DNA of 64,000 nucleotides from an uncultured bacterium (GCA_965233135.1 CBDDRM010000028.1:100331-164330), one strand, 5' to 3'; positions 27,455 through 53,976 are shown, counted from the stretch's first letter. The notes: a model not told the origin generated them from the letters alone. Made by a program: numbers and translations.

Positions 27455-27478
27455 CGTTCTGCCCTGCGGGCGCATCCC

Positions 27479-28186: not shown

Positions 28187-28195
28187 GCCATCGGT

Positions 28196-30117: not shown

Positions 30118-30119
30118 GT

Positions 30120-31286: not shown

Positions 31287-31843
31287 TTCTTTGCAGCGGA
31301 TTTGCCGCGAGGCGGTGGCGGCGCTGGCGGCAGGTTCATTGCCTTGACTTTGGCGGTCTGCCGGCGTCGAAAGGCCTCAAGCTTCGCAGCCAGTCCGGCG
31401 TCCGCATGCGCGAGCAAAGCCAGCGCGAACAAGCCCGCATTGGCCGCACCGGCTTCACCGATGGCGAATGTGGCCACTGGAATCCCGCGCGGCATCTGCA
31501 CAATGGACAACAGCGAATCGAGCCCTTGCAACGCCCGCGACGTCACCGGTACGCCTAGCACTGGCAGCCGCGTCTTCGAGGCGAGCATGCCCGGCAGGTG
31601 CGCGGAGCCACCCGCACCGGCGATGATGCAGCGCAGACCGCGCGAGGCGGCTTGCTCTGCGTACTGGAACATCAGGTCCGGCGTGCGATGGGCCGATACC
31701 ACGCGGGCCTCATAAGCTACGCCGAATCTGTCGAGCATCTGCGCCGCGTGCTGCATGACCGGCCAGTCGCTGTCGCTGCCCATGACGATGCCTATGAGCG
31801 GCGAGGATTTTTTGCGGCGAGGAGCGGTGCGAAGCGTGGCCAA
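31283..31843 (-). CDS. purE: 5-(carboxyamino)imidazole ribonucleotide mutase
   Basis: [14 protein letters not shown]...AHRTPD...IIAGAGGAAHLPGM-type motifs (here [14 protein letters not shown]). TTG at 31843 lies behind AAGGAA. The start is approximate. Confidence 0.9.
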
Positions 31844-31853
31844 GATGTATTCC

Positions 31854-32294
31854 TTATTCCTTGCCGTATTGTGGCTGCCTGCCGGATTTGCGCCCGGCGT
31901 CTTCGGTGTAAGGAAAACGCACGTGGCCATAGCGGATCAACAGGACCGCCAGCGCGATCAGCAGCACCGAACCGGACACGGCCAGCATGCGCCAGACATC
32001 GAGATCCTTGATGTCGAGAATCAGATAACGCGCCAACGCAACCATGGCGATATACAGCGGAAAGCGCACCGGCAGTTTTCCGGAATTGTAATAAAGGCCC
32101 ACCATGGTGAGCACTTCCAGGTACAAGAACATCAGCAGCAGATCGGCCAAAGTGACTTTTCCATGGCCGACCATCACCATGACTTCCTGATAGCCGGCCA
32201 CGATGGTAGCCAGCGCGATGACCATCAGCCCGATGTTCTCGACGAACGCCAGCACACTCTGGGCATAGCGCGAAGTCAGGGTTTGAGTCTGCAT
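31854..32294 (-). CDS. PsiE-like (phosphate-starvation-inducible E family) membrane protein
   Basis: 146 aa with 4 hydrophobic segments. Its length and pattern ([14 protein letters not shown]..., ALARYLIL) resemble PsiE. Confidence 0.55.
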
Positions 32295-32317
32295 GACTTA
32301 GCTCCGGCGCCGGCGAG

Positions 32318-33382
32318 TCAGTTGACAACGGCTTGGAATGTGCCGCTCGCGTATTGCTCTGCCATGCGGTCGAGCGTGACGGGCTTGAGACGCGCCGCCT
32401 GGCCGGCGCTGCCGAATGCTTCGAAGCGTGCCTTGCAGATCTGTCGGGCTGCAAGCATGGCGTCCTTGAGGTATTTGCGCGGATCGAATTCGGCTTTGTC
32501 CTTGTTGAAGGCGCGCCGGATTGCACCGGTCATGGCCAAGCGGATATCGGTGTCGATATTGATCTTGCGCACGCCGTGCTTGATGCCTTCCTGGATTTCT
32601 TCGACCGGCACGCCGTAGGTCTCCTTCATCTCTCCGCCGTTGTCGCGGATCACTTTCAGCCAGTCCTGCGGCACCGAGGAAGATCCATGCATGACCAGGT
32701 GCGTGTTGGGAATGCGCCTGTGAATGGCCTTGATGCGTTCAATGGCAAGGATGTCGCCGGTGGGCTTGCGGCTGAATTTGTAGGCGCCGTGCGAGGTGCC
32801 TATCGCGATGGCCAGCGCATCGACTTGGGTCTGCTTGACGAAGTCGGCGGCCTGATCGGGGTCCGTGAGCAACATGTCGTGAGTCAGCGCTCCTTCGGCG
32901 CCCGAGCCGTCTTCTTTGCCTGCTGTCATGGTCTCCAGCGAGCCCAGGCAGCCCAGTTCGCCTTCCACGGAGACGCCTACTGCGTGGGCCATGTCGACGA
33001 CCTGCCGGGTGACCCTGACGTTGTAATCATAGGGTGCCGGCGTTTTCATGTCTTCCTTGAGCGAACCATCCATCATCACCGAACTGAAGCCCGAGCGGAT
33101 GGAGCGCTGGCATACCGCAGGGTTGGCGCCATGGTCCTGGTGCATGACCACCGGAATATCGGGATACATTTCCACGGCCGCCTCGATCAGGTGGCGCAGG
33201 AAAGGCTCACCGGCATATTTGCGGGCGCCGGCGGAAGCCTGCATGATGACCGGCGAATTCGTCTCGTCGGCTGCCTGCATGATGGCCTGGATCTGCTCAA
33301 GATTATTGACATTGAACGCGGGCACGCCGTAGTTGTGTTCAGCAGCATGGTCGAGCAACTGTCGCATCGATACGAGAGCCAT
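32318..33382 (-). CDS. fba: Class II fructose-1,6-bisphosphate aldolase (CbbA/Fba type)
   Basis: [30 protein letters not shown]...VMHQDHG...HGSSSVP. 354 aa. Confidence 0.95.
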
Positions 33383-33431
33383 AATTGTTTCCGGAGGAGT
33401 CGAATGGGATTTTGCGGTACGCGGATGACGC

Positions 33432-34868
33432 TCACGGACGGCGGCTTTCGCCGACCTTGACGATCTTCATCGTATTGGTGCCACCCGGCGAGCCGATGGG
33501 TTCGCCAAAAGTGACGACGATCAGATCGCCCTTCTGCACGAGCCCGGCGCTGACCAGCTGGTCCTCGGCTTCCTGCAGCAGATAATCGCGATCGTGACCG
33601 ACGTATTTGATCAACAGCGGATAGGTATCGCGAAACAGGCTCAGCCGGTATCGCGTTGAAACTTCCGGAGTCAATGCGTAAATCGGGACCCCGCAATTGA
33701 GCCGGGATATCCACAATGCCGTCGAGCCGGATTGCGTGAGCGCCGCAATCGCCTTGACCTTCAGATGATACGCCGTGAATAACGCTGCCATCGCGATGGA
33801 CTGATCGACGCGCGTAAACACGCGATTCAGGAATTCCCGGTCGAGGGTCGATTCGGCGGACTTTTCGGCTTCCAGACAGATGCGCGCCATGGATTCCACG
33901 GTTTCGACCGGGTACTTGCCACTGGCGGTTTCCGCAGAGAGCATGACCGCATCGGTTCCGTCGAGCACGGCATTGGCCACATCGGACACTTCCGCGCGCG
34001 TCGGTACCGGGCTCGTGATCATCGATTCCATCATCTGCGTGGCCGTGATGGTGAGTTTATTGCGCTCCCGCGCCGTGCGGATCATGCGCTTTTGCAACGC
34101 CGGCACCGCGGCGTCGCCCACTTCAACGGCCAGATCGCCCCGCGCGACCATGATGCCGTCGCACGAATCCAGAATCTCGTCCAGCGCAAACACGGCTTCG
34201 GTGCGCTCGATCTTTGCGATGAGCATGGACTTTCCGCCGGCGGCGCGCATGAGCTCCCGCGCCATGTACATATCAGCGCCGCTGCGCGGAAACGAAACCG
34301 CCAGGAAATCGGCTTTCATCTGCACCGATGTCTTGATGTCCTCCATGTCCTTGGCGGTCAGCGCCGGAGCCGTCAGTCCCCCGCCCTGGCGGTTGATGCC
34401 CTTGTTGTTCGACAACACCCCGCCAACGCGCACGATGGTGTTGATGCGGTTGTCCTGCACGTCCTTCACGTCGAGCACCAGTCGGCCGTCGTCCAGCAGC
34501 AATACCGCGCCCGCAGCCACGTCGCGCGGCAACTCCTTATAATCCAGCCCGACTTCCCGCTGGTTGCCCAGCGTGCAATCCGCATCGAGCGTGAACGCAT
34601 CGCCCGGACTGAGCGTAATGCGCCCCGCCTCGAACTTGCCGATGCGGATCTTCGGTCCCTGCAGGTCGCACATCAGCCCCACGGTGCGCTCCAGGCCGCG
34701 TGCGACTTCGCGCACGAGTTCCGCGCGCGCCAGATGCTCCTCCTTGGTGCCGTGCGAGAAGTTCATGCGCACCACGTCGACCCCGTGGGCGATCATGCGC
34801 GTGAGAACGTCTTTGTCGCTCGACGCGGGGCCGAGTGTCGCGACGATTTTCGTGCTTTTCTGGGTCAT
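33432..34868 (-). CDS. pyk: Pyruvate kinase
   Basis: [11 protein letters not shown]...VVRMNFSHG...[10 protein letters not shown]. 478 aa. It overlaps the pgk stop by 4 nt. Confidence 0.95.
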
Positions 34869-36064
34869 GTCTTTTCCCGTGATGGACCTGCGGCGCGAGT
34901 CTCCAGAATCTCAACGGCAGGCAGCGTCTTGCCTTCGAGGAACTCGAGAAACGCGCCGCCGCCGGTGGAAATGTAGCCGATCTTGTTTTCGATGCCGTAC
35001 TTGGCAATGGCGGCCACGGTGTCGCCGCCGCCCGCGATTGAAAAGGCAGGCGATTGGGCAATGGCGTTGGCCAGTGTCCGGGTGCCCTCGGCAAATCGGT
35101 CAAACTCGAACACACCCACCGGACCGTTCCAGACAATGGTGCCGGCCTTGCCGAGCATGGCTGCGAGTTGCGCCGCGGTCCTGGGTCCAATGTCGAGAAT
35201 GAGATCATCGGCAGCGACATCCCGGGCTGCCTTGACCGTTGCGCTGGCTTCTGCGGAAAATGCTTTGGCGCAGACCACATCGACCGGAATCGGCACGCCC
35301 CCGCCCTTGGACGCGAGGCTCGCCATGATGTTGCGTGCCTCGTCGACCAGGTTTGGTTCGGCCAGCGATTTACCGATCGGCAGGCCTGCGGCAAGCATGA
35401 ACGTATTGGCAATGCCTCCGCCCACGATCAGCTGATCCACTTTTTTGGCCAACTCGCCGAGGATGCTGAGCTTGGTCGACACCTTGGAGCCCGCGACGAT
35501 GGCAACCAACGGATGTTTAGGATTGCGCAGGGCCTTGCCCAGCGCATCGAGCTCCGCCGCCAGCAGGGGGCCGGCGCAGGCGATCGGCGCATACTTTGCA
35601 ATGCCATGCGTGGTGGCTTCCGCGCGGTGCGCGGTGCCGAACGCATCGTTGACATAGACGTCGCAGAGCGCGGCCATTTTGCGGGACAGGCCCTCGTCAT
35701 TGCTCTTCTCGCCTTTGTTGACGCGGCAATTTTCCAGCAGCACGACCTCGCCGGGCTTGACCTCCACGCCGCCGACCCAGTTCGAGCGAAGCGGGACCGG
35801 CGTAGCCAGCAATTCGGCCAAGCGCCTGGCCACCGGCGCCAGCGAATCCTCGGGCTTGAATTCGCCTTCCACCGGGCGGCCGAGATGCGAGGTCACCATG
35901 ACGGTCGCGCCGGCTTTCAGGGCGCGCTCGATCGCCGGCACGGAGGCGCGAATGCGAGTGTCGTCGGTAATGCGGCCGCTATCGTCCAGGGGCACATTGA
36001 GGTCCGCTCGGATGAAAACGCGCTTGCCTTGCAGGTCGACTCCGGTCATTCGCAGAATGGTCAT
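34865..36064 (-). CDS. pgk: Phosphoglycerate kinase
   Basis: [13 protein letters not shown]...SHLGRP...[10 protein letters not shown]...STGGGAFLE. 399 aa. Confidence 0.96.
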
Positions 36065-36170
36065 GGGATTGCGTCCATCCGTTCAAGATTCGCTAATGCA
36101 GAGGGCACCGAGCAAGCAAGGCCACAGGCGGCCTGCTCCACTCCGTGCCCCCGCCGAAATAACTGCCGGT

Positions 36171-37184
36171 TTATTTCGCGCCGACGAATGTCACCGTGGT
36201 GTCCAGCATGCGATTGCTGAACCCCCACTCATTGTCATACCAGGAACAGACTTTCACCAGTGTGCCTTCCGAAACCTTGGTCAGGGTCGAATCAAACACG
36301 GAGGAGGCCGGATTGTGATTGAAATCGACCGACACCAGTGGGTCCGTGCTGTACTCGAGGACTCCCTTGAGGTCGGCCTGACTGGCCTGTTTTACCGCAT
36401 TGTTGACTTCCTCGACGCTGGTCGCGCGCCGGGCCACGAAACTCAGGTCGACGATGGAGACATTGATGGTCGGCACGCGCATGGCAAAGCCGTCGAGTTT
36501 GCCATTGAGCTCCGGCAGCACCAGGCCCACCGCGGCAGCCGCGCCCGTTTTGGTCGGAATCATCGACATCGTGGCGGAACGCGCGCGGCGCAAATCCGTG
36601 TGATAGACGTCCGTGAGCACCTGGTCGTTGGTATACGAATGGATGGTGGTCATCAACCCGTTCACCACTCCGATGCGATCGTTCAATGCCTTGACCATGG
36701 GGGCGAGGCAATTGGTCGTGCAGCTGGCATTGGAGATCACCGTGTGCGACGCTTTCAGCGTGCCATGATTCACGCCGTAGACCACGGTCGCATCCACATC
36801 CTTGTCGGCCGGCGCGGAAATGATGACTTTCTTCGCGCCCGCGGTCAGATGCGCGCCGGCTTTGGCCTTGCTCGTGAACAATCCGGTGCATTCGAGCACC
36901 ACGTCCACACCGAGCTCCTTCCACGGCAACTCCGCGGGATTGCGCTGGGCGCAAACCTTGATCTTGTCGCCATCGACGACCAGGAAATCCCCATCGACTG
37001 CGACGCTGCCCGGAAACTTGCCATGGGCGGTATCGTAGCGTGTCAGGTGCGCGTTGATTTTGGCGTCGCCCAAATCGTTGATCGCCACGATCTGGATGTC
37101 GTGCTGCTTGCGGTTCTCATAATGCGCCCGCAGGATGTTGCGCCCGATGCGGCCATAGCCGTTTATTGCAACGCGAATGGTCAT
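36171..37184 (-). CDS. gap: Glyceraldehyde-3-phosphate dehydrogenase (type I)
   Basis: [10 protein letters not shown]...[12 protein letters not shown]...WYDNEWG. 337 aa. Confidence 0.96.
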
Positions 37185-37394
37185 TAGCGAGTCCTCTGAT
37201 TAAAACCGGATTTTACTGCACTCGGCGGATCGATCACAGCCATGCTGCGGCGCGGAGCGGGAATGCGTTGCGCAGCCCGCGCACGGCTCTTATAGTGGGT
37301 CATGATGCGCACTGCCAGGTTTCGGTGCCTCGGCGATGACGTCAGCTACACGATTCTCAGAAGATCCAAACACCGTACATCTACGGAGGACATC

Positions 37395-38657
37395 ATGGGA
37401 CACGGTATTGCAGAAGCAATGCGGGGGTTGCTGGCGCTGATAGCCGGAATAGCGTTCGCGCTGCCCGTCGCGGGGGGTGAAGTCGAAGTGCTGCATTGGT
37501 GGACCTCGGGGGGCGAGGCTAAGTCCGTCGGCGAACTCAAGAAGATTCTCGAAAGCAAGGGCGACACATGGAAGGACTTCGCCGTCGCCGGGGGCGCGGG
37601 CGAGACGGCCATGACGGTCCTCAAGTCGCGCGTGGTGTCCGGCAAACCCCCCACAGCGGCGCAGGTCAAGGGACCCGGCATCCAGGAGTGGGCGCGTGAA
37701 GGCGTGCTGGCCAATCTCGACGACGTTGCCAAGGCCGGAAAATGGGACTCGCTGTTGCCGCCGGTTGTCAGCAACGTCATGAAGTACCAGGGGCACTATG
37801 TGGCCGTGCCGGTCAACGTGCACCGTGTCAACTGGATGTGGGCCAATCCCGAGGTCTTCAAGAAGGCGGGCGCCAAGATTCCGACCACCTGGGCCGAGTT
37901 CGAGGTGGCGGCAGACAAAATCCAGAAGGCCGGCCTGATCGCGCTCGCGCATGGCGGTCAGCCCTGGCAGGATTCCACGGTCTTCGAAGCCGTTGCACTC
38001 GGCACCGGGGGCGCGGATTGGTACAAAAAGGCTTTCGTCGACCTCGATGCCAAGTCGCTGGGCAGCCCGCAGATGGAAAAATCCTTTGCAACGTTGCGCA
38101 TGATCCAGAAATACATCGACAAGGACGCTGCCAACCGCGACTGGAATCTGGCCACCGCGATGGTGATCAACGGCAAGGCCGCGATGCAGTTCATGGGAGA
38201 TTGGGCCAAAGGGGAATTCAGCGCGGCTGGCAAGAAGCCCGGCAAGGATTATGTCTGCATGCCAATTCCGGGTAACCAGGGCACCTACACCTTCAATATC
38301 GATAGCTTCATCATGTTCCAGCAAAAGGATGCATCGGCCTCGACGGCGCAGTCGCATCTGGCTGCCGCCATCATGGAGCCGAAGTTCCAGGAAGTATTCA
38401 ACCTCAACAAGGGCTCGATTCCGGTGCGTCTTGGCATGAACCTGGACAAGTTCGACCAGTGCGCCAAGGATTCAGCCGCCGAATTCGTGGCTGCGTCCAA
38501 GAGCGGCAAGCTCGTGCCCAGTTGGGCGCACGAGATGGCGATGCCTCCGGCCAACAAGGGCGCCATGTTCGATGTGGTCACCAACTTCATGAACACCCCG
38601 TCCATGACGCCCAAGGCCGCGGCGGAGAAAATGGCTGCCGCCGGCAGCGTCAGATAA
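37395..38657 (+). CDS. Carbohydrate (glucose-type) ABC transporter substrate-binding protein, GtsA/GltB homologue
   Basis: RBS GGAGGA. It has a signal-like N-terminus followed by VEVLHWWTSGGEA..., typical of glucose/mannose SBPs. It is clearly diverged from my recollection of the Pseudomonas protein. Confidence 0.8.
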   Translation: MGHGIAEAMRGLLALIAGIAFALPVAGGEVEVLHWWTSGGEAKSVGELKKILESKGDTWKDFAVAGGAGETAMTVLKSRVVSGKPPTAAQVKGPGIQEWAREGVLANLDDVAKAGKWDSLLPPVVSNVMKYQGHYVAVPVNVHRVNWMWANPEVFKKAGAKIPTTWAEFEVAADKIQKAGLIALAHGGQPWQDSTVFEAVALGTGGADWYKKAFVDLDAKSLGSPQMEKSFATLRMIQKYIDKDAANRDWNLATAMVINGKAAMQFMGDWAKGEFSAAGKKPGKDYVCMPIPGNQGTYTFNIDSFIMFQQKDASASTAQSHLAAAIMEPKFQEVFNLNKGSIPVRLGMNLDKFDQCAKDSAAEFVAASKSGKLVPSWAHEMAMPPANKGAMFDVVTNFMNTPSMTPKAAAEKMAAAGSVR

Positions 38658-38719
38658 GCTGGCTTGGCCGCCGCGGGGGCGGCAACACGCGCCCCTTGGC
38701 GGCCTTCGCTTATGGCGCC

Positions 38720-39643
38720 ATGACGGCATCGAGATCCGGGACCGCGCCAGCGGTACCCGGCAACAGGTTGCGCGATTACGCGGCGACGCTCATGCCGAAA
38801 ATCGTGCTCGGCCCGACGCTCGCCGTGGCCGTTGTTTTCATCTATGGCTTCATCCTGTGGACCGCGTGGCTGTCGTTCACCGAGTCGAGGTTGCTTCCGC
38901 GCTACGATCTCGTCGGCTTCGTGCAATACGTGGCCTTGTTCGAGAACGATCGCTGGTGGACGGCGCTGACCAATCTGGGGATCTTCGGATCGCTGTTCAT
39001 TGTGAGTTGTCTGGTCACCGGGCTGCTCCTGGCGATCCTGCTCGACCAGCGCATCCGCGCCGAAGGGTTCTTGCGCGCGGTGTATCTCTACCCCATGGCG
39101 CTGTCATTCATTGTCACGGGTACCGCATGGCGCTGGATCCTGAATCCCGGTCTGGGCATCGAGCATCTGGTGCGCCAGTTCGGCTTCGAGGAGTTCACCT
39201 TCGACTGGATCGTGACACCGGGCATGTCCATTTACACCGTGGTGATTGCAGGCGCCTGGCAGTCGAGCGGCTTCGTCATGGCGTTGTTTCTGGCAGGCCT
39301 GCGCGGCGTCGATGACTCGATCATCAAGGCCGCGCAAGTCGACGGCGCGGGGCCAGTGCGCATATATCTGCGGATCATCATCCCGTCGCTTCGACCGGTA
39401 TTCTTCAGCGCCGTGATCATTCTCGCGCACATCGCCATCAAGAGTTTCGACCTCGTGATGGCGCTCACCGGAGGCGGCCCTGGATTTTCTTCCGATTTGC
39501 CCGCAACCTTCATGTATGTGTTCGCGTTCAACCGCAACCAGATCGGCCTGGGGGCGGCCAGCGCCATGATGATGCTGCTGACCGTCGTGGCAATCATCGT
39601 GCCGATGATCTATTCGGAAACACGGAGGCAGGCACATGCCTGA
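38720..39643 (+). CDS. Carbohydrate ABC transporter permease 1 (GtsB/GltF homologue)
   Basis: Internal ATG. The MalF-type EAA region reads AAQVDGAGPVRIYLRIIIPSLRP. 307 aa. Confidence 0.85.
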   Translation: MTASRSGTAPAVPGNRLRDYAATLMPKIVLGPTLAVAVVFIYGFILWTAWLSFTESRLLPRYDLVGFVQYVALFENDRWWTALTNLGIFGSLFIVSCLVTGLLLAILLDQRIRAEGFLRAVYLYPMALSFIVTGTAWRWILNPGLGIEHLVRQFGFEEFTFDWIVTPGMSIYTVVIAGAWQSSGFVMALFLAGLRGVDDSIIKAAQVDGAGPVRIYLRIIIPSLRPVFFSAVIILAHIAIKSFDLVMALTGGGPGFSSDLPATFMYVFAFNRNQIGLGAASAMMMLLTVVAIIVPMIYSETRRQAHA

Positions 39644-40517
39644 GATCCGGCGCACCGAATCGGCCGGCAGCCGCACGTTTGGCCGGGTCCTGCTGTACGC
39701 GGTGCTGATCGCATTTGCGCTGTACTACCTGATGCCGCTGTTCGTAATGCTGACCACGTCGCTGAAAACCCTCGAGGACGTTCGCACTGGAAACCTGATT
39801 TCGCTACCGCAGAAGCTGTCGTTCGACGCCTGGATCAAGGCCTGGTCCGGCGCCTGCACCGGCGCGGATTGCAGCGGCCTTCGCGCCAACTTCTGGAATT
39901 CGGTGAGCTTCGTGCTTCCCGCCGTCGCCGTGTCCACGCTCGTGGGCGCGCTCAATGGCTACGTGCTGACCATGTGGCGCTTCCGCGGCAGCGACGCGTT
40001 TTTCACGTTGCTGCTGATCGGTTGCTTCATTCCTTTCCAGGTCGTGCTGTTGCCGATGGCCCAGACGCTGGGCTGGCTTGGCATCGCCAACACCACCGCC
40101 GGGCTGATTTTCGTGCACGTGATCTACGGGCTCGCCTTCACCACGCTTTTCTTCCGCAACTTCTATATCGCGATCCCGCCGGAGATGGTCAGGGCTGCGC
40201 GTGTCGATGGCGCCGGGTTCTTTCGCATTTTCTGGCGCATCATCCTGCCGTTGTCCCCGCCGATCATCGTGGTGTGCGTGATCTGGCAATTCACCCAGAT
40301 CTGGAACGACTTCCTGTTTGGCGTGGTGTTCTCCAGCGGTGATTCGCAGCCCATCACGGTGGCGCTGAACAACCTGGTCAACACCAGTACCGGGGTCAAG
40401 GAATATAACGTTGATATGGCGGCGGCGATGATCGCCGGGCTGCCGACCCTGCTGGTCTATGTGGTCGCAGGCAAGTATTTCGTGCGCGGCCTGACGGCCG
40501 GCGCGGTCAAGGGGTAA
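39636..40517 (+). CDS. Carbohydrate ABC transporter permease 2 (GtsC/GltG homologue)
   Basis: The MalG-type EAA region reads AARVDGAGFFRIFWRIILPLSPP. It overlaps the previous gene by 8 nt and ends 2 nt before the ATPase gene. Confidence 0.85.
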   Translation: MPEIRRTESAGSRTFGRVLLYAVLIAFALYYLMPLFVMLTTSLKTLEDVRTGNLISLPQKLSFDAWIKAWSGACTGADCSGLRANFWNSVSFVLPAVAVSTLVGALNGYVLTMWRFRGSDAFFTLLLIGCFIPFQVVLLPMAQTLGWLGIANTTAGLIFVHVIYGLAFTTLFFRNFYIAIPPEMVRAARVDGAGFFRIFWRIILPLSPPIIVVCVIWQFTQIWNDFLFGVVFSSGDSQPITVALNNLVNTSTGVKEYNVDMAAAMIAGLPTLLVYVVAGKYFVRGLTAGAVKG

Positions 40518-40519
40518 TC

Positions 40520-41680
40520 ATGGCAACGCTTGAACTTCGTAACGTAAACAAGACCTACGGTACCGGCCTGCCGGACACCCTGAAGAACATCGAACTGTCG
40601 ATCAAGGAAGGTGAGTTCCTGATCCTGGTCGGCCCTTCGGGTTGCGGCAAATCGACCTTGATGAATTGCATTGCCGGCCTGGAAAACATCACCGGTGGCG
40701 CGATCATGATCGGCGACCAGGACGTCAGCGGCATGAGCCCCAAGGATCGTGACATCGCCATGGTGTTCCAGTCCTACGCGCTGTACCCGACCATGAGCGT
40801 GCGCGAGAACATCGAATTCGGCCTGAAGATTCGCAAGATGCCCCAGGCGGCGATCGATGAAGAAGTGGCGCGAGTGGCCAAGCTGCTGCAGATCGAGCAC
40901 CTGCTCAATCGCAAGCCGGGCCAGCTCTCCGGTGGCCAGCAACAACGCGTGGCCATGGGCCGTGCACTGGCGCGTCGCCCGAAGATCTACCTATTCGACG
41001 AACCGCTGTCCAACCTCGACGCCAAGCTGCGGGTCGAGATGCGTACCGAAATGAAACTGATGCACCAGCGTCTGAAAACCACCACCGTCTACGTCACCCA
41101 CGATCAGATCGAAGCGATGACCCTGGGCGACAAAGTGGCGGTCATGAAGGACGGCATCATCCAGCAGTTCGGCACGCCGAAAGAGATCTACAACGACCCG
41201 GCCAATCTGTTCGTGGCGAGCTTCATCGGTTCGCCGCCGATGAACTTCATTCCACTGCGCCTGCAACGCAAGGACGGTCGCCTGGTGGCGCTGCTGGACA
41301 GCGGCCAGGCCCGCTGTGAATTGCCGTTGAACATGAACGATGCCGGTCTTGAAGACCGCGAAGTGATCCTGGGCCTGCGCCCGGAGCAGATCGTGCTGGC
41401 CGCCGCCGAAGCCACCGGCGCGCCGACCATTCGGGCCGAGGTGCAAGTCACCGAGCCGACCGGTCCGGACACCCTGGTGTTCGTGCAAATCAATGACACC
41501 AAGGTCTGCTGCCGCCTGGCGCCCGATGTGGCGCCGCAAGTGGGCGAGACCCTGACCTTGCAGTTCGACCCGGCCAAAGTGTTGCTGTTCGACGCCAAGA
41601 CCGGCGAGCGCCTGGGCACTGCCGCTTCGTTGCCTGCCCAGGACCGTGCCGACAACGTCGCTCAATTCAAGGGACGCTGA
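40520..41680 (+). CDS. gltK: Glucose ABC transporter ATP-binding protein (MalK family), Pseudomonas type
   Basis: Walker [10 protein letters not shown], signature [15 protein letters not shown] and Walker [10 protein letters not shown]. The sequence matches my recollection of P. fluorescens/putida GtsD(GltK) almost residue for residue. Confidence 0.95.
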
Positions 41681-41785
41681 AGTTTCAAATGATGTGTAGG
41701 GGCTTTTGTGAGAGTCCTGCTCTCACAAAGAAGTAAACCGCGTTAGATAAAAACAGTTAATAACAATAAAGACGAGGATGTAGGG

Positions 41786-43132
41786 ATGAAAAAGCACCAC
41801 AACAACACCCGGCTGATCTGCCAACTGTCAGCAGCAGCAGCCCTGGTACTGTCCGCCAATGCGATGGCGGACGACGCGTTCAGCGCCGACTCCAAGTGGA
41901 TGACCGGTGATTGGGGCGGCGAACGTACCAAACTGATCGAGCAAGGTATCGACATCAAGGCGGATTACGTCGGTGAAGTCGGTGGCAACCTTGGCGGCGG
42001 CTACAACAACGACAAGACTGCCCGTTACGCTGACCAGTTCGGTCTGGGCGTGGCACTGGACCTGCAAAAGCTGTGGGGCTGGGACAACACCCAGGCCAAG
42101 ATCCAGTTGACCAATCGTAATGGCGCAAACATCTCCAACGACCGTATCGGTGACCCGCGTGCCGGCACCTTGAGTTCGTCTCAAGAAGTCGACGGCCGAG
42201 GCCACATGGTGCGTCTGACCCAGTTCTGGGTTCAGCACCAGATGTTCGACAACAAGCTGGACGTGAAGCTCGGTTACTTCGGTGAAGGCGAAGACTTCAA
42301 CACCTTCCCGTGCGACTTCCAGAACCTGTCGTTCTGCGGCTCCCAGGTCGGTAACTATGTAAACACCTGGTACAACTGGCCAGTCGCCCAGGCGGCTATT
42401 CGCGTGAAGTACAACATCACGCCTGAACTGTATGCGCAAATCGGTGCATACAACCAGAACCCGTCGCAACTGGAGCACGGCAACGGCTTCAAGCTCAGCG
42501 GCAGCGGCACCAAGGGCACCGTGATTCCGGTGGAATTGGTCTGGTCGCCTAAGGTCAATGGCCTGCCGGGTGAATACCGTGTGGGTTACTACAAGAGCGC
42601 CGCGGACGCCAACGACGTACTTAAAGATGTCAATGGCAACGATGCAGCCACCACTGGGGCAGCCTACCGTGTGCGCAGCAGCAAAACCGGCTATTGGGGC
42701 GTCGTGCAACAGCAACTCACTACCCACAATGGCGACGCTTCCCGCGGCTTGAACATCGCGGCCAACGCCACCTTCCACGACAAAGACACCAACCTGGTCG
42801 ACAACTACCAGTCGGTGATGCTTGTGTACAAAGGCCCATTCGACGCCCGTACCAAGGATGACGTGGGTATCGGTGTGTCCCGTATCCATGCCAACAGCGA
42901 CGTGAAGAAAAACGCCGAGCTGTATAACGAGGCCAACGGTTTCACCGATTACAGCGAAGCGGGTTACGCACCGCTGCGCAACACCGAATACAACGTCGAA
43001 CTGAACTACGGCATCCACGTCACCAACTGGCTGACCGTGCGTCCCAACCTGCAATACATCGCCAACCCAGGTGGTGTTAAGCAAGTCGACAACGCGGTGG
43101 TAGCGGGCCTGAAAATTCAGTCTACGTTCTAA
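41786..43132 (+). CDS. oprB: Carbohydrate-selective porin OprB
   Basis: 448 aa with a signal peptide and terminal ...AGLKIQSTF. It occupies the conserved position after gltK in Pseudomonas. Confidence 0.93.
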   Translation: MKKHHNNTRLICQLSAAAALVLSANAMADDAFSADSKWMTGDWGGERTKLIEQGIDIKADYVGEVGGNLGGGYNNDKTARYADQFGLGVALDLQKLWGWDNTQAKIQLTNRNGANISNDRIGDPRAGTLSSSQEVDGRGHMVRLTQFWVQHQMFDNKLDVKLGYFGEGEDFNTFPCDFQNLSFCGSQVGNYVNTWYNWPVAQAAIRVKYNITPELYAQIGAYNQNPSQLEHGNGFKLSGSGTKGTVIPVELVWSPKVNGLPGEYRVGYYKSAADANDVLKDVNGNDAATTGAAYRVRSSKTGYWGVVQQQLTTHNGDASRGLNIAANATFHDKDTNLVDNYQSVMLVYKGPFDARTKDDVGIGVSRIHANSDVKKNAELYNEANGFTDYSEAGYAPLRNTEYNVELNYGIHVTNWLTVRPNLQYIANPGGVKQVDNAVVAGLKIQSTF

Positions 43133-43170
43133 CGTTGTTGCGATAAGCTCCTTCTCTCTGTGCGCATTTT

Positions 43171-43200
43171 GCGGGTAGCCATGGCTATCCGCTTTTTTTT
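43171..43200 (+). terminator. Intrinsic terminator after oprB
   Basis: GCGGGTAGCCATGGCTATCCGC hairpin followed by T8. Confidence 0.85.
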
Positions 43201-43201
43201 G

Positions 43202-43281
43202 TGTGGGAGCTGGCTTGCCTGCGATGCGCGCCCCGCGGTGTATCTGCCACACCGAGGCGATGCCATCGCAGGCAAGCCAGC
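43202..43281. repeat. Pseudomonas REP pair (GGGAGCTGGCTTGCCTGCGATG family)
   Basis: TGTGGGAGCTGGCTTGCCTGCGATG (43202-43226) faces CATCGCAGGCAAGCCAGC (43264-43281). The same family recurs at 63853. Confidence 0.85.
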
Positions 43282-43310
43282 GCCTGCAAAGATATTCAGG
43301 ACCGTGGCAC

Positions 43311-44156
43311 ATGCATGAGCATCCGCTGCAACGCTTTTTCAAATCCCTGCGCGAGCGGCCGGTATTCGCCTGGGAACGCTTCCAGATGCGCGATGTGCTG
43401 GTGATCGATCACCCGCTCTGCCAGGCGGTGTTCAGTCGCCAGGGCGCGCAATTGCTGCACTTTCAGCCCACGGGCCAGAAGCCCTGGCTGTGGTGCGCGG
43501 CCAAGTGGCCGCAGGTCGGCGCCATCCGTGGCGGCGTGCCGGTGTGTTGGCCGTGGTATGGCCGCCATCCCAGCGAAAACGCCTGGCCGTCCCATGGTTG
43601 GGCACGGCTGATCGACTGGAAATTGCTGGACAGCAGCACCGACGACGACGGCGTGCGTTTGCACTGGCAATTGCAGCTATGCGACTGGCAGGTGGACCTG
43701 CATGCACACCTGGGGGAAACCCTGGAGCTGCGCCTGGCCACCGAGCACCAGGACGAGCTGCCGTGCCAATTGAGCCATGCTTTGCACGCTTATTGGCGGA
43801 TTGGCAACGTTGGTGAGATAGCGCTGTCTGGGCTCGATGGCGCGCAGGGCTACGACCAGCTGAATCGCCAGGCGTGCCAGCAGGAAGGCGAGTTGCGTGT
43901 CGATGGTGGGTGTCAGCGGGTGTTCCAGCACGACGGTGAACTGCACCTCAAGGACCATGCCTGGCAGCGCGAATTGTGCATCGACACCGGCGAGAGTGCC
44001 GACACGGTGGTGTGGCACCCGGGGAGTCGACCGTTGCTGGGGGTGAGCTTCAACGAGGCTGCAGGGTTTGTGTGTGTGGAGTCGGCAATGGCTGCTGCGA
44101 GCCTGGCGCCGGGGGAGCGGGCGCATTTGAGTTTGCAGGCGCGGGCGGGGGCTTGA
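43311..44156 (+). CDS. D-hexose-6-phosphate mutarotase (glucose-6-phosphate 1-epimerase, YeaD family)
   Basis: Start taken at MHEHPLQRFF, because the upstream part of the ORF is REP sequence. GGVPVCWPWYG and VVWHPG are aldose-epimerase-like motifs. It occupies the conserved position between oprB and hexR. Confidence 0.8.
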   Translation: MHEHPLQRFFKSLRERPVFAWERFQMRDVLVIDHPLCQAVFSRQGAQLLHFQPTGQKPWLWCAAKWPQVGAIRGGVPVCWPWYGRHPSENAWPSHGWARLIDWKLLDSSTDDDGVRLHWQLQLCDWQVDLHAHLGETLELRLATEHQDELPCQLSHALHAYWRIGNVGEIALSGLDGAQGYDQLNRQACQQEGELRVDGGCQRVFQHDGELHLKDHAWQRELCIDTGESADTVVWHPGSRPLLGVSFNEAAGFVCVESAMAAASLAPGERAHLSLQARAGA

Positions 44157-44186
44157 TCCGGATGTTCCGGTGTTGCTGATGCCGCT

Positions 44187-44268
44187 TTCGCGAGCAAGCC
44201 CGCTCCCACATTAGACCGAGTTCCACTTTTGGAATGCAGTCGAATGTGGGAGCGGGCTTGCTCGCGAA
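44187..44268. repeat. Pseudomonas REP pair (GTGGGAGCGGGCTTGCTCGCGAA family)
   Basis: TTCGCGAGCAAGCCCGCTCCCACA (44187-44210) and TGTGGGAGCGGGCTTGCTCGCGAA (44245-44268) form an inverted pair between convergent genes. Confidence 0.9.
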
Positions 44269-44298
44269 GAGGCCGGCACATTCACAGCAGATTCGGGC

Positions 44299-45168
44299 CT
44301 AGTTGAATTCATCCCCAACCGGATACCGGCTGTCGTTCAAGCTCTCTTTGATCTTGCGCAAATGCGGCTGGAAATCCACCCCGCGACGCAAGGTCATGCC
44401 CGTCGCCAGCACATCCAGCACCGTCAACTGAATGATCCGCGAGGTCATCGGCATGTAGATGTCGGTGTCTTCCGGCAACGGAATGTTCAGGCTCACCGTA
44501 CTGGCCTTGGCCAGCGGCGAGTTTTCGGCGGTCACGCCCAGCACCGAGGCGCCGTTTTCCCGCGCAATACGTGCTACTTCCACCAGTTCACGGGTACGCC
44601 CGGTGTAGGAAATGATCACGAACAACTCCCCGGTGTGGGCCACCGAGGCGATCATCCGCTGCATCAGCACATCGGCGTGGGCCGTGACCGACAGGTTGAA
44701 ACGGAAAAACTTGTGCAGCGCGTCCATGGCCACCGGCGCCGAAGCACCCAGGCCGAAGAAGTGGATCTGCCGAGCCTGGATCAGCAGGTCGACGGCCTTG
44801 CTGATCAGGTTCGGGTCCAGGGCCTGGCAGGCGCTGTCGAGGGACGCGATGGCACTGCCGAAGATCTTCTGGGTGTAGGCCTCCGGGTTATCATCGGCCT
44901 CCACCGCGCGGCTGACATACGCCGCGCCGCTGGCCAGGCTTTGCGCCAGCTGCAATTTAAGTTCAGGGTAACCACTCACGCCGAACGAGCGGCAGAAGCG
45001 GTTCACTGTAGGTTCGCTGACCGAAGCGGCCTGGGCGAGGGCGGCGATAGAGAAGCGGGTCGCCTGCTGCGGGTTGAGCAGGATGACCTCGGCGACTTTA
45101 CGTTCAGCCTTGTTCAGTTCTTCGAGGCGTTTCTGGATCTGTTCCAGTAGATTTCGCACGCGGTCCAT
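44299..45168 (-). CDS. hexR: RpiR-family transcriptional repressor HexR
   Basis: N-terminal HTH ([23 protein letters not shown]) plus a SIS domain. 289 aa, divergent from zwf as in Pseudomonas. Confidence 0.93.
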
Positions 45169-45293
45169 TCATGTTTCCTTAGGGCGACGATGCAAATAAG
45201 GGTCGTCAACCAATCGACGAGCGGCCCTTTGCGGTGGCCTATCCTACTGAGGGTAGTTGAACACCACCACTCGGAATACGTTTTTCGGGAAAA

Positions 45294-45312
45294 TGTTGTG
45301 GTTATTACTACA
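45294..45312. promoter_or_regulatory. Candidate HexR operator in hexR-zwf intergenic region
   Basis: TGTTGTGGTTATTACTACA is an imperfect palindrome (TGTTGT / ACTACA half-sites) of the TTGT-N-ACAA type reported for Pseudomonas HexR. It lies 66 nt upstream of the zwf ATG. Confidence 0.5.
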
Positions 45313-45377
45313 TTTTTCCTTGAGTGATGCCTTAAAAAAAGGTATTTGTAGCTTAACTTGATAAAAGAACAAACATC

Positions 45378-46844
45378 ATGCCTTCGATAACCGTAGAACC
45401 CTGCACCTTTGCCCTGTTTGGCGCCTTGGGTGATCTGGCGCTGCGCAAGTTATTTCCTGCCCTCTATCAACTCGATGGTGCGGGCCTGCTGCACGAAGAC
45501 ACGCGCATCCTGGCCCTGGCCCGTGAGGCCGGTTCCGAGCAACAGCACCTGGCCCACATCGAAAAAGAATTGCGTGGTTACGTTGGCAAGGAACTGGACG
45601 AAACCGTCGCCCAACGTTTCCTGGCCCGCCTGACGTACCTGCATGTCGACTTCCTGAAGGCCGATGACTACGTCGCCCTGGCAGAGAACGCCGGCACTGA
45701 ACAACGCCTGATCGCCTACTTCGCCACCCCGGCGGCGGTGTATGGCGCGATCTGCGAGAACCTGTCCAAGGTCGGCCTGGCGGAAAACACCCGCGTGGTC
45801 CTGGAAAAACCCATCGGTTCGGACCTGGATTCCTCGCGCAAGGTCAACGACGCCGTGGCGCAGTTCTTCCCGGAAAACCGCACCTACCGCATCGACCACT
45901 ACCTGGGCAAAGAGACCGTCCAGAACCTGATCGCCCTGCGTTTTGCCAACAGCCTGTTTGAAACCCAGTGGAACCAGAACTACATCTCCCACGTGGAAAT
46001 CACCGTGGCCGAGCAAGTAGGCATCGAAGGTCGCTGGGGCTATTTCGACAAGGCCGGGCAGCTGCGGGACATGATCCAGAATCACCTGCTGCAGCTGCTG
46101 TGCCTGATCGCCATGGACCCGCCGGCCGACCTGTCTGCCGACAGTATTCGGGACGAGAAGGTCAAGGTGCTCAAGGCCCTGGCGCCCATCAGCCCGGACG
46201 GCCTGACCACCCAGGTGGTGCGTGGCCAATACATCGCCGGCTACAGCGCCGGCAAGCCGGTACCGGGTTACCTGGAAGAAGAGAACTCCAACACCCAGAG
46301 CGACACCGAGACCTTCGTCGCCCTGCGTGCCGATATCCGTAACTGGCGTTGGGCCGGGGTGCCGTTCTACCTGCGTACCGGCAAGCGCATGCCGCAAAAA
46401 CTGTCGCAGATCGTCATCCACTTCAAGGAACCGTCCCACTACATCTTCGCCCCGGAGCAGCGCTTGCAGATCAGCAACAAACTGATCATCCGCCTGCAAC
46501 CGGACGAAGGGATTTCCTTGCGCGTGATGACCAAGGAGCAGGGCCTGGACAAGGGCATGCAACTGCGCAGCGGCCCGCTGCAACTGAATTTTTCCGACAC
46601 CTATCGCAGCGCACGGATTCCCGATGCCTACGAGCGGCTGTTGCTGGAAGTAATGCGTGGCAACCAGAACCTGTTTGTGCGCAAAGATGAAATCGAAGCT
46701 GCGTGGAAGTGGTGTGACCAGTTGATCGCCGGATGGAAAAAATCCGGTGATGCGCCCAAGCCGTACGCGGCGGGCTCCTGGGGGCCAATGAGCTCGATTG
46801 CACTGATCACGCGGGACGGGAGGTCTTGGTATGGCGATATCTGA
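45378..46844 (+). CDS. zwf: Glucose-6-phosphate 1-dehydrogenase
   Basis: [23 protein letters not shown] and [11 protein letters not shown] motifs. 488 aa. Confidence 0.97.
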
Positions 46845-47544
46845 TTTGAAACTGCCTCAGGGCGTGACTGCCCATGAGTACCGCAACCCGGTGCTGCTGG
46901 CGGATGGCTTGGCCAATGACGTGGCCGAACAACTGCGCGCGGCCATTAGTGCCCGTGGCGAGGCGACCCTGGTGGTGTCCGGCGGCCGCAGCCCGGTGGC
47001 GTTCTTCCAGAACCTCGCCAAGCAAGGCCTGGACTGGTCCAAGGTGACCATCACCCTGGCCGACGAGCGCTGGGTGCCGGTGGAACATGCCGACAGCAAT
47101 GCCGGCCTGTTGAAGAAGTATTTGCTGCAAGGCCCGGCGGCCAAGGCCAAGTTCCTGAGCCTGTACAGCGTCGCCGCCACCCTTGACGACGCTGCCGAGC
47201 AGGCCGATCGCCTGCTGGCCGAGTTGCCGACGATTGATGTGCTGGTACTGGGCATGGGCGACGACGGCCACACCGCGTCGCTGTTCCCCAACAGCCCGAA
47301 CCTGGCTGAAGCGTTGAAGCCGGACGGCAGCCGTCGTTGCTGGCCGATGCTGGCGCCGACTGTGCCGCACCAGCGCCTGACCATGAGTCGCGCGCTGCTG
47401 GCCACCGCCCACTACACCGTGCTGTCGATTTCAGGCAGCTCGAAATTGACCACCTTGAGCGCCGCGCTGGCCAGTGACGACGTTGCTGCCATGCCGATAC
47501 GCGCGTTTTTGCAACCTACTCTAGAGATTTACTGGTGCCCATGA
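46831..47544 (+). CDS. pgl: 6-phosphogluconolactonase
   Basis: LVVSGGRSP...[14 protein letters not shown]. It overlaps the zwf end by 14 nt. Confidence 0.93.
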
Positions 47545-48227
47545 GCCAAGGATCAGCCGCGATGAACAGCCCTCAACCTACCGTTTCCATGGCGGACAAA
47601 GTTGCCTTGATCGACAGCCTCTGCGCCAAGGCGCGGATCCTGCCGGTGATCACCATTGCCCGTGAACAGGACATCCTGCCGCTGGCCGATGCCCTGGCAG
47701 CCGGTGGTTTGACCGCACTGGAAGTGACCCTGCGTTCGCAGTTCGGCCTCAAGGCCATCCAGGTACTGCGTGAGCAGCGTCCGGAGCTGTGCACCGGTGC
47801 CGGTACCGTGCTGGATCGTCATATGCTGGAAGCGGCCGAAGTGGCCGGTTCGCAATTTATCGTCACTCCCGGGATTACCCGTGACCTGCTGGAAGCCTCG
47901 GTACACAGCTCGATTCCGCTGTTGCCGGGCATCAGCAATGCCTCCGGGATCATGGAAGGTTATGGCCTGGGTTATCGCCGTTTCAAGCTGTTCCCGGCTG
48001 AAGTCAGCGGTGGCGTGGCGGCGATCAAGGCCCTGGGCGGCCCGTTTGGCGAAGTGAAATTCTGCCCGACTGGCGGGGTTGGCCCGGCCAACATCAAGAG
48101 CTACATGGCGTTGAAAAATGTGATGTGCGTGGGCGGTAGCTGGATGCTTGATCCGGAATGGGTCAAGAACGGCGACTGGGCACGCATCCAGGAAACCACC
48201 GCCGAGGCGCTGGCCCTGCTGGACTGA
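47541..48227 (+). CDS. eda: KHG/KDPG aldolase (2-dehydro-3-deoxy-phosphogluconate aldolase)
   Basis: ILPVITIAREQDILPLADALAAGGLTALEVTLRS...FKLFPAE...FCPTGGV. The start is ambiguous (47535, 47541 or 47562). Confidence 0.93.
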   Translation: MSQGSAAMNSPQPTVSMADKVALIDSLCAKARILPVITIAREQDILPLADALAAGGLTALEVTLRSQFGLKAIQVLREQRPELCTGAGTVLDRHMLEAAEVAGSQFIVTPGITRDLLEASVHSSIPLLPGISNASGIMEGYGLGYRRFKLFPAEVSGGVAAIKALGGPFGEVKFCPTGGVGPANIKSYMALKNVMCVGGSWMLDPEWVKNGDWARIQETTAEALALLD

Positions 48228-48328
48228 TTGGATTTACCGAATCGTTGTTGCTGTGTTCTACGGCATTTTTGCGGTGCACTTGGTCGGTGTGCCGCTTTTT
48301 TTTGCCTGCGGAAAATGGCCCACTCCCA

Positions 48329-48430
48329 CTGTAGGAGCGAGCTTGCTCGCGAAAAAACCGAGAGCACCGCTGGGTGTCAGGTTTCCCGTGTCATCGTTAA
48401 CGACCTTCGCGAGCAAGCTCGCTCCTACAG
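48329..48430. repeat. Pseudomonas REP pair (TGTAGGAGCGAGCTTGCTCGCGAA variant)
   Basis: CTGTAGGAGCGAGCTTGCTCGCGAA (48329-48353) and its exact reverse complement (48406-48430). The second arm touches the stop of the convergent aminotransferase gene. Confidence 0.9.
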
Positions 48431-49606
48431 TGATATCGCGCTCAGTTCGGTGATGGCTTTGATCAGCGCATGAATGTCTGCCGCTGACGTCAAAAAGCCT
48501 GGTGTCACCCGAATACAACTGCCGAACGAGGCCCCGCTGCGGGTTGTGGTGAAGAGGTTGTATTCCTTGAGCAGTCGGTCCGCCATCACCTGCTGATCCG
48601 GCTTGTCAGTGAACTTGAACGACGTGATCGCGCAATACAGCCGTGGGTCGTCCGGCGTCAGCACTTCAATTCCCGGCAACTGCCGCACCTCACTCACCCA
48701 CAAATCCCGCAGGTAATTAAGGCGGGCGCCCTTGGCCCTGGATCCACCCAGCAAACGATGCTCTTCGAACACCAGCGGCAAGGTCATCAACGCCGGGAAA
48801 TTCGGCGTGCTGTATGGCGTGCGGGCACGTACATCGGTGGCCGGGTAATGAAACTCACCCATGTCCGGATCAATGTCTGCCAACCGTTGCGGGTCGATAT
48901 AAATAAAGCCCAGGGTCAACGGCGCACCGATCCACTTGTGCAGGTTGAAACCGGCAAACGCGATACCCAACTGCGCCAGGTTGAACTCGATCTGCCCCAG
49001 CGCATGGGCGCCATCGAGGATCACATCAATTCCATGTTCCCTGGCAGCGCCGGCAATCGCCTCCACCGGCATCACCAGCCCGGTGCGGTGAGTCACGTAG
49101 GTCAGTGCCAGCAGTTTCAGGCGGGGATAGCGCAGGAACGCATCGCGATACGTCTGCACCAGGCTGTCGAAACTGGCCGGGTGTTCGTGGGCAATTTCGA
49201 TCACTTCTACACCGCGATTCTGCGCCAGCCAGCGCATGGCGCCCTTGACGGTGTCGTACTCCAGGTCGCTGATCAGCACCTGGTCGCCGGGCTGCAAGCG
49301 GTTGTAGTTGCGGATCAGCGACTGCAACGCATCCGAGGCGCAGCGGGTGAGGGCGATGGCTTCAGGATCGGCGTCCATCAACTGCGCCAACTGGTTACGG
49401 ATCTCGACGTTTTCGCCCTGCTCGAAACGCTGGCGCACATGGATCGAGTTGCTGCGGTTGATGAAGGCGACGTTGTCCTGATACTGCTCAAGTACCGCGC
49501 GGCTCATGCGCCCGAAGTAACCGTTTTCGAGGTTGATCGGGCCGGGCTCCAGGTCGTAGCGCTGGGCGATGGCGTGCCAGTGTTGTTCGTCGCGGGTACT
49601 GTCCAT
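48425..49606 (-). CDS. Class-V aminotransferase (isopenicillin-N-epimerase/cysteine-desulfurase-like)
   Basis: 393 aa. It has ILDGAHALGQ and the PLP-Lys motif NLHKW. Confidence 0.75.
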   Translation of the reverse strand: MDSTRDEQHWHAIAQRYDLEPGPINLENGYFGRMSRAVLEQYQDNVAFINRSNSIHVRQRFEQGENVEIRNQLAQLMDADPEAIALTRCASDALQSLIRNYNRLQPGDQVLISDLEYDTVKGAMRWLAQNRGVEVIEIAHEHPASFDSLVQTYRDAFLRYPRLKLLALTYVTHRTGLVMPVEAIAGAAREHGIDVILDGAHALGQIEFNLAQLGIAFAGFNLHKWIGAPLTLGFIYIDPQRLADIDPDMGEFHYPATDVRARTPYSTPNFPALMTLPLVFEEHRLLGGSRAKGARLNYLRDLWVSEVRQLPGIEVLTPDDPRLYCAITSFKFTDKPDQQVMADRLLKEYNLFTTTRSGASFGSCIRVTPGFLTSAADIHALIKAITELSAISL

Positions 49607-49618
49607 GTGCGTGCTCTA

Positions 49619-49900
49619 TTAATGACGAGGGGCAGGCTTGCCGTGTTTGGCGCGTAGGGGTTCCAGCAGTTCGGATAAACCGTTGTGGTCGATTTCCTGC
49701 ATCAGGGCCAGCAACCCGCCCAGTTCGCCGTGGGGGAAACCTTCACGGGCGAACCAGTTCAGGTAGGGGCCGGGCAGGTCGGCAATGATCCGGCCCTTGT
49801 ACTTGCCGAAGGGCATTTCGCGGGTGATCAGCAGTTCAAGTTTTTCAGGGTTCATTGCGGCTTCAGGTGTTTGAGTCGGTGCTTTGGAAAATACAGGCAT
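49619..49900 (-). CDS. DUF3820-family small protein
   Basis: MPFGKYKGRIIADLPGPYLNWFAREGFPHGELG is characteristic of this family. The start may be the internal Met at 49855. Confidence 0.6.
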   Translation of the reverse strand: MPVFSKAPTQTPEAAMNPEKLELLITREMPFGKYKGRIIADLPGPYLNWFAREGFPHGELGGLLALMQEIDHNGLSELLEPLRAKHGKPAPRH

Positions 49901-50061
49901 TCTGCATGGAGGCCAAATGACAGATCATGCAAATAAAGCGGATACAGATTTTTGTGTATTGGCTAACTTATTGAAATTTAAGTAATAAATTGTTTTTCAA
50001 AAGCTGGCACGGGCGCTGCAATTACTAATACACGTTTCTTAACCCGCGAAGGAATTGAAAA

Positions 50062-50529: not shown

Positions 50530-50542
50530 GCCCCGCCTGAAT

Positions 50543-50571
50543 AAAAAAGCCCCGCAGATGCGGGGCTTTTT
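50543..50571. terminator. Bidirectional intrinsic terminator
   Basis: AAAAAAGCCCCGCAGATGCGGGGCTTTTT lies between convergent genes. Confidence 0.85.
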
Positions 50572-50584
50572 CATGGGCGTTCGT

Positions 50585-51055: not shown

Positions 51056-51113
51056 CAGTTGGTGCATCCTGTGGCTAATCAGAAATCTTAATATATTGAT
51101 TTTAAACGAAAAA

Positions 51114-53956: not shown

Positions 53957-53976
53957 TTTGAAATAAGGTCAAAAAA

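Follow-up and report, generated by a model that had tools for sequence, protein, structure and literature searches.

Betaproteobacterial and Pseudomonas sequence joined within a shared sugar-transporter gene in a 64-kb stretch of an uncultured bacterium assembly

Analyzing 64,000 nt of the uncultured bacterium assembly GCA_965233135.1 (CBDDRM010000028.1:100331-164330; this whole stretch is referred to as the window), we found that it is composed of 40 kb of an uncultured soil betaproteobacterium and 24 kb of Pseudomonas chromosome, joined within a sugar-transporter gene that the two share. The left segment (1..40319) belongs to an uncultured Burkholderiales (betaproteobacterial) genome, as indicated by its best relatives, its codon and tetranucleotide profiles and its Pfam content, and the right segment (40320..64000) belongs to a Pseudomonas chromosome of the fluorescens lineage, as indicated by its gene order and by zero mismatches to independent Pseudomonas assemblies. 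A preliminary description of this DNA had suggested comparing the two halves separately, and doing so placed different organisms on the two sides of the breakpoint, Burkholderiales MAG lineages on the left and Pseudomonas on the right, a difference at the level of class. The same description had proposed a chimeric contig formed on conserved gts sequence, a proposal that the origins of the segments, their native contexts, the crossover site and the uniqueness of the junction support. Judging from the sequence, we put the probability at roughly 90% that the window is an artefact, an inter-genome chimeric contig that stems from a metagenome assembly or from a MAG built from one.

The breakpoint in the permease-2 gene

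On the plus strand of the window, the gene of a gtsA-like sugar-binding protein (37395..38657; putative start codon placed by an upstream GGAGG) and that of a gtsB-like permease 1 (38720..39643; start codon likewise putative) are both of the left type. The two genes show ~65% nucleotide identity to Pseudomonas; compared with the MAG MFD01275.bin.2.24 (L012), the best species representative in our scan, the binding protein is 97% identical in amino acids and permease 1 is 82-94% identical in nucleotides. The gtsC-like permease 2 (39636..40517, plus strand; 293 aa) is a hybrid ORF that stays in frame. Protein alignment assigns its residues 1-228 to the left type and its residues 229-293 to the Pseudomonas type, and its last 66 codons already carry all of the diagnostic Pseudomonas residues (D236, S237, M265, L273 and A290; 5/5). 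The ABC ATPase GtsD/GltK encoded at 40520..41680, also on the plus strand, is of the Pseudomonas type. This exact protein occurs in 212 blocks of the assembly collection, with a Pseudomonas-type gene context in 10 of the 10 places listed, and it shares only 58% amino acid identity with the native ATPase of L012.

Pseudomonas genomes for comparison were fetched by an exact match to the ATPase protein of the window. Nucleotide identity to these genomes is about 60-78% across the binding protein, permease 1 and most of permease 2, and rises to 98-100% from ~40300, confirming the abrupt change of origin that had been noted at 40300-40600. The preliminary description had placed the switch in the 2 nt that separate the stop of permease 2 (40517) from the ATPase start (40520). 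Base-level alignment relocates it: the last mismatch to the corresponding Pseudomonas strain is at 40319 and the sequence is identical from 40320 onward, so that the crossover, 40319/40320, lies within the permease-2 coding sequence, 198 nt 5' of its stop. No part of the operon is more conserved than the surrounding crossover zone (40281..40330, plus strand), where VIWQFTQIWNDFLFGVVF of permease 2 is encoded. When the Pseudomonas gts operon (4.5 kb) was compared with four left-lineage relatives, the longest exact matches were 50, 47, 38 and 35 nt, and all four mapped to 40281-40330. This zone makes up ~1% of the operon, and a random breakpoint would be expected to fall there ~1% of the time. 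Given that the crossover sits in the longest exactly shared stretch, we concluded that the join was driven by sequence identity. The breakpoint thus lies in sequence common to both genomes, as judged on relatives of the left parent rather than on the left parent itself. The joined parts keep the reading frame and meet at homologous positions, as they also would in a true homologous recombinant.

The surroundings of the breakpoint carry few landmarks. No tRNA was found in the 64-kb window, no direct or inverted repeats of note were found at the junction, and no mobile-element genes were seen near it among the annotated genes, in agreement with the preliminary description. A search for the hallmarks of a genomic island, ICE or transposon, i.e. 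an integrase, transposase, relaxase, tRNA/att site or flanking direct repeats, found none of them. A genomic island or other mobile element was rejected on these grounds (no tRNA, integrase or repeats) and because the right-hand genes are Pseudomonas core metabolism. The window contains no Ns, the junction has no gaps, and a join across a scaffold gap was rejected for lack of Ns.

Relatives of the two segments

According to Pfam, the left segment carries znuA/ABC-3, hslU, glycogen phosphorylase, the lar cluster, glgA/B/C, GH57, edd/ilvD-like, sua5, purK-purE and fba-pyk-pgk-gap, followed by the gts binding protein, permease 1 and most of permease 2. When each GTDB species was represented by one genome, the close relatives of the binding protein in the scan were exclusively uncultured Burkholderiales/betaproteobacterial MAGs, the nearest cultured genera reaching ~70% amino acid identity. 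L012 is colinear with the window over 27429-41250 and shares 87.4% nucleotide identity with it over 27429-40319 (12.9 kb). A closer match is a Logan contig (L011; SRR7230152) that is 99.84% identical over 35570-37446 of the window. The gap protein of the left segment has its only exact match on one 1.9-kb Logan contig from SRR7230152, which ends before the gts genes; none of the left binding protein, permease 1, fba and pyk had an exact match among the recorded proteins, and a literature search found no mention of SRR7230152. Since the best matches of the left organism are all MAGs, the source must be a metagenome.

The nearest left relatives that align across the junction are L012, L013 and L014. 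All three retain a permease 3' end of their own, and the two that reach further downstream, L012 and L014, retain their own ATPase as well. Homologues of the L012 ATPase, at 61-87% amino acid identity, are present in about 35 left-lineage loci. Furthermore, 23 left-lineage relatives (down to ~60% amino acid identity) carry homologues of four genes downstream of gtsD, which in nearly all of them follow in the order glk (glucokinase), tkt (transketolase), an ntrX-like regulator and an ntrY-like kinase. Searching the window by tblastn recovered none of these four, its sole match being the Pseudomonas ATPase. Given that the synteny of the left relatives is lost, and that of Pseudomonas begins, at the crossover, the window switches conserved synteny exactly there. 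These data bear on an ancient mosaic or gene-conversion tract, in which a Pseudomonas-like permease-2 3' end and ATPase would have been fixed long ago in a betaproteobacterial lineage. The permease-2 3' end is highly conserved across lineages, which would suit such an origin; the relatives' own permease 3' ends and ATPases argue against it, and so does the right part, the 23.7 kb of which match a present-day Pseudomonas strain at 100% identity, as they could not after an old event. We therefore rejected an ancient lineage-wide mosaic, which we regard as extremely improbable.

The right segment carries the 3' end of gtsC, gtsD(gltK)-oprB-aldose epimerase, hexR, zwf-pgl-eda, an aminotransferase, a phaJ-like gene, a hydrolase, fadD1-fadD2, a brkB-like gene, def, a desaturase and a sigma/FecR pair, in an order identical to that of Pseudomonas genomes. 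The gene content that had been named for both sides was thus correct, on the evidence of Pfam and of the Pseudomonas gene order. From the last 66 codons of gtsC onward, the segment matches the Pseudomonas glucose uptake/Entner-Doudoroff locus (gtsABCD-oprB, hexR, zwf-pgl-eda) gene for gene, whereas in the window betaproteobacterial homologues stand in place of the native gtsA, gtsB and the greater part of gtsC. Over its whole length (40320-64000; 23,681 nt) the segment has 0 mismatches to independent assemblies of one Pseudomonas strain. Among them are L096 (GCA_049597995.1) with 0 mismatches in 12,813 nt (40320-53132) and L092 (JGI 3300082333) with 0 mismatches in 16,834 nt (47167-64000), and L097, L098, L100 and L101 are free of mismatches over the 2.9-6 kb that they cover; together with L096 and L092 these sequences come from JGI, NCBI and Logan. 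The window remains colinear with the Pseudomonas chromosome, at 100% identity, to its last base, 64000. The closest isolates to the right segment are L001 (99.3%) and L007 (99.2%), the latter being Pseudomonas sp. KK18 (CP146605; PMC12243462).

The matching Pseudomonas strain continues differently on the far side of the junction. In 23 of the 23 contigs inspected, the exact OprB of the window is preceded by native Pseudomonas gtsA, gtsB and gtsC (428, 302 and 281 aa), and the hybrid context was seen in 0/23; upstream of the junction, L096-L099 carry 8.7 kb of native Pseudomonas sequence without a difference among them. Each side of the window is therefore colinear with its own lineage and has its native continuation elsewhere. 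The exact OprB occurs in 130 blocks of the collection, 83 of them with contigs of 2-5 kb, and the flanking Pseudomonas proteins occur in 130-212 blocks, whereas the hybrid permease 2 is absent from the record. This wide distribution raises another route to the same artefact, namely a mixed or contaminated culture or enrichment that was called an isolate, or a ubiquitous Pseudomonas strain that entered as a contaminant from another sample or from reagents. The appearance of the zero-mismatch strain in many unrelated datasets, mostly as short contigs of low coverage, is typical of a widespread contaminant, but a cosmopolitan environmental strain would show the same pattern; moreover, the left lineage is known from MAGs only and its nearest cultured relatives stand at ~70% amino acid identity, which makes an isolate source unlikely. 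We consider contamination of this kind quite improbable.

Composition and REP elements across the junction

Base composition does not register the join. GC is ~0.61 on the left and 0.60 on the right, and GC3 ranges from 0.73 to 0.85 on both sides, neither showing a step. Synonymous codon usage does change: from left to right the shares of ACC (0.45 to 0.74), CGT (0.11 to 0.22), GGT (0.14 to 0.21), CTG (0.50 to 0.65) and GAA (0.48 to 0.58) increase, those of TAT (0.46 to 0.25) and AAT (0.43 to 0.19) decrease, and AAC and TAC rise on the right. The codon switch described previously was accordingly recovered for GGT, CGT, ACC, CTG and GAA but not for GGG, the share of which is the same on both sides (0.13 vs 0.14). 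In a leave-one-out codon log-likelihood ratio, 25 of the 26 left genes were left-like and 19 of the 21 right genes were right-like, while the hybrid permease scored ~0. Tetranucleotide correlation was 0.89 within the left block, 0.88 within the right block and 0.71 across the two, with the minimum between neighbours at 40-42 kb, and by both measures, codons and tetranucleotides, each block is homogeneous inside. The profiles switch as a block at the junction, without compositional amelioration. The preliminary description had proposed composition profiles as a check and had counted profiles with no step at 40.5 kb against two origins. A step is present in codon usage and tetranucleotides and absent from GC3 and GC and, given that GC and GC3 are flat across the junction, that reasoning would mislead if applied to GC alone.

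The distribution of REP elements follows the same division. Ten matches to the Pseudomonas REP consensus (TGTGGGAGCGGGCTTGCTCGCGAA) were found at 44187..58769, allowing up to 3 mismatches, where 0 are expected by chance; they form five inverted pairs at about 44.2, 48.4, 54.0, 56.2 and 58.7 kb. Variant REP pairs are located at 43206-43284 and 62171-62282, and a related element at 63853-63922. No REP element was detected in the window left of 43.2 kb, in line with the earlier observation that REPs are confined to the right side.

Formation of the join and its implications

In the explanation that we favor, a chimeric contig, Burkholderiales sequence (1-40319) would have been joined to that of a co-occurring Pseudomonas strain (40320-64000). 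Both organisms carry a homologous glucose/mannose ABC transporter operon (gtsABCD), and the join would have been placed in the 3' part of permease 2, the one stretch of the operon in which they may be identical for tens of bases. It was presumably made in silico, through a shared k-mer path in the assembly graph, or in vitro, through a chimeric template, and not in a cell. The argument for a metagenome chimera combines a left part known only from metagenomes, a right part with zero divergence, the lack of amelioration, a join at the longest identity and a junction that is unique. In the CAMI benchmark, inter-genome translocation via conserved sequence was the most prevalent type of misassembly (PMC9661791).

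The length of the overlap at the join depends on three bases, at 40289, 40295 and 40319, where none of the Pseudomonas loci matches the window. If these are bases of the left parent, and if that parent resembles L012-L014, the two genomes would share 23 nt before 40319 and ~11-14 nt after it. Such an overlap is shorter than the usual assembler k, so that a plain k-mer collapse is unproven. In a third lineage, L103, the exact match at this place extends to 53 nt and takes in all three window-specific bases, and the true left parent may thus share a longer run; alternatively, the join may have passed through a tangle of k-mers from several organisms or through a chimeric template molecule. The uncertainty about the overlap concerns how the artefact was formed, and it also keeps a very recent genuine recombination formally alive.

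To look for the junction elsewhere, JGI metagenomes were scanned with a 38-mer that spans the crossover and carries the three window-specific bases. The scan contained neither a second copy of the chimera nor the left parent, and returned two unrelated lineages only (67% and 81.5% identity), indicating that the stretch is widely conserved. The assembly collection (153 billion gene positions) has no record of the exact hybrid permease-2 protein, and the best database relative of the hybrid, at 92% identity, is not the left parent. The junction was thus unreproduced in independent assemblies, whether in the protein collection, in the 23 OprB contigs or in the JGI 38-mer scan.

These results also bear on a genuine and very recent recombination between classes, in which a Burkholderiales cell would have integrated at least 23.7 kb of Pseudomonas DNA through a microhomology of a few tens of bases in the conserved 3' part of permease 2; the outcome would be a hybrid gts operon with Pseudomonas core genes behind it. 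As such an event would predict, the reading frame is preserved and the two genes meet at homologous positions inside microhomology; the junction has neither Ns nor gaps, and the short overlap implied by the three left-type bases would suit recombination or a template switch at least as well as k-mer collapse. Against it, the 23.7 kb show 0 mismatches to a free-living Pseudomonas strain that was assembled elsewhere in its native context, and no compositional amelioration. A genuine mosaic would be expected to show its junction in independent genomes or samples, where it was not found, and some divergence from the donor or amelioration, neither of which was seen; the latter excludes an old event, though not a very recent one. 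The homology flanking the crossover is only 65-80%, and identity in this range is far below what RecA-dependent recombination normally tolerates. There is no integrase, transposase, tRNA or flanking repeat, the block that would have moved consists of ordinary, REP-bearing core chromosome, the conserved glk-tkt-ntrXY genes would have disappeared from this place in the recipient, and the junction is unique to this sequence. We regard genuine recombination as very improbable.

Natural mosaic genes, such as pbp in transformable streptococci, and the products of homology-facilitated illegitimate recombination have an in-frame crossover at microhomology and a hybrid gene, as in the window. In the natural cases known so far, the donors are of the same or a related genus, the anchors have much higher identity, the donor sequence shows some divergence, and the mosaics recur in populations. 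In the window, by contrast, the donor would belong to another class, the block of core chromosome is at least 23.7 kb long without any divergence, and the junction was seen nowhere else. An inter-genome translocation misassembly, a category defined in metaQUAST at which metaMIC, DeepMAsED and ResMiCo are aimed, similarly consists of two organisms joined at a common conserved sequence. Such misassemblies are mostly described for close strains or species, whereas here the partners are of different classes, are ~65-80% identical around the join, and may have in common an exact run as short as 23 nt followed by at least 11 nt. GUNC detects genome chimerism and contamination in MAGs, where a block of genes from a foreign lineage is found in a bin, as it is in the window. 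The chimerism described here differs from that type in that it lies within a single contig and not between the contigs of a bin.

The window is a worked example of a join to which GC and GC3 are blind and which synonymous codons, tetranucleotides, the distribution of REPs and synteny expose. A real junction would mean that core genes had been exchanged between classes by homologous recombination, an exceptional event caught in the act, and the cell would possess a working hybrid transporter, in which a betaproteobacterial binding protein and permeases operate with a gammaproteobacterial ATPase; we hold such a transporter to be very improbable as well, and probably no cell contains the hybrid operon. 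Since the chimerism lies inside one contig, binning filters that act at the level of contigs cannot remove it, and the contig should be split at 40319/40320 and its bin evaluated anew. As it stands, the contig and any MAG that holds it would attribute ~24 kb or more of foreign Pseudomonas sequence, including zwf-pgl-eda, the fadD genes and the REPs, to an uncultured member of the Burkholderiales, and this misattribution would corrupt the metabolic reconstruction, the inference of horizontal transfer and the taxonomy.

Gene neighbourhoods on the Burkholderiales side

In the uncultured Burkholderiales lineage of the left segment, the region of the gts sugar ABC transporter operon (13148-21016 in L012, the nearest left-lineage relative, and 23 related loci) carries a gap-pgk-pyk-fba cluster, then the gts operon with glk, then tkt and, last, a two-component pair resembling ntrX/ntrY, an arrangement that is kept down to ~60% amino acid identity.

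On the same betaproteobacterial side of the window, a lar-type nickel-pincer cofactor cluster directly adjoins a glycogen cluster (8686-12773, minus strand, and 12860-19774). The lar part consists of a gene resembling AIRC/LarB, a 274-aa ORF without assignment, a gene for LarC (Ni_insertion) and one similar to LarA (Lar_N), and the glycogen part comprises glgA, glgB, glgC and GH57, with glycogen phosphorylase as a further member at 4715-7273. Three sizeable left-side ORFs, 15-809 (plus strand), 9370-10194 (minus) and 26225-27727 (minus), matched no Pfam family at E≤1e-5; their GC3 is gene-like.

Synonymous differences within the crossover zone

Within the crossover zone, the synonymous bases at 40289, 40295 and 40319 are unlike those of every Pseudomonas locus and also unlike those of L012, while the C at 40295 is common to the window and L013, another left-lineage relative. 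The exact 38-mer containing all three bases was found in two unrelated metagenome contigs (L102 and L103). These observations are relevant to how short the parental overlap may have been.

Repeats and occurrence of the Pseudomonas strain

Comparison with other assemblies of the Pseudomonas strain revealed that REP inverted pairs are break sites in three of them: L098 ends at window position 44226, L094 begins at 53992, and at 56196 L095 diverges. The window crosses all three pairs (44187-44268, 53974-54069 and 56120-56207) unbroken, and therefore repeats were resolved better, or more aggressively, in its assembly than in L094, L095 and L098. REP pairs lie between the tandem paralogues fadD1 (52181-53956) and fadD2 (54351-56042), which share 76-89% nucleotide identity in blocks, and again after the second paralogue.

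The right segment (40320-64000) and loci L092-L101 represent a single Pseudomonas strain that is clonal among assemblies of unrelated origin: four come from JGI metagenomes, four from NCBI and one from a Logan run. The window showed no mismatches to the other assemblies across 3-17 kb, and L096-L099, when compared mutually, showed none along 8.7 kb upstream. The exact OprB of this strain was listed in 130 blocks, on contigs mostly of 2-5 kb. This clonality over unrelated sources, together with the many OprB blocks, suggests that the Pseudomonas strain is either cosmopolitan at low abundance or a laboratory or reagent contaminant.
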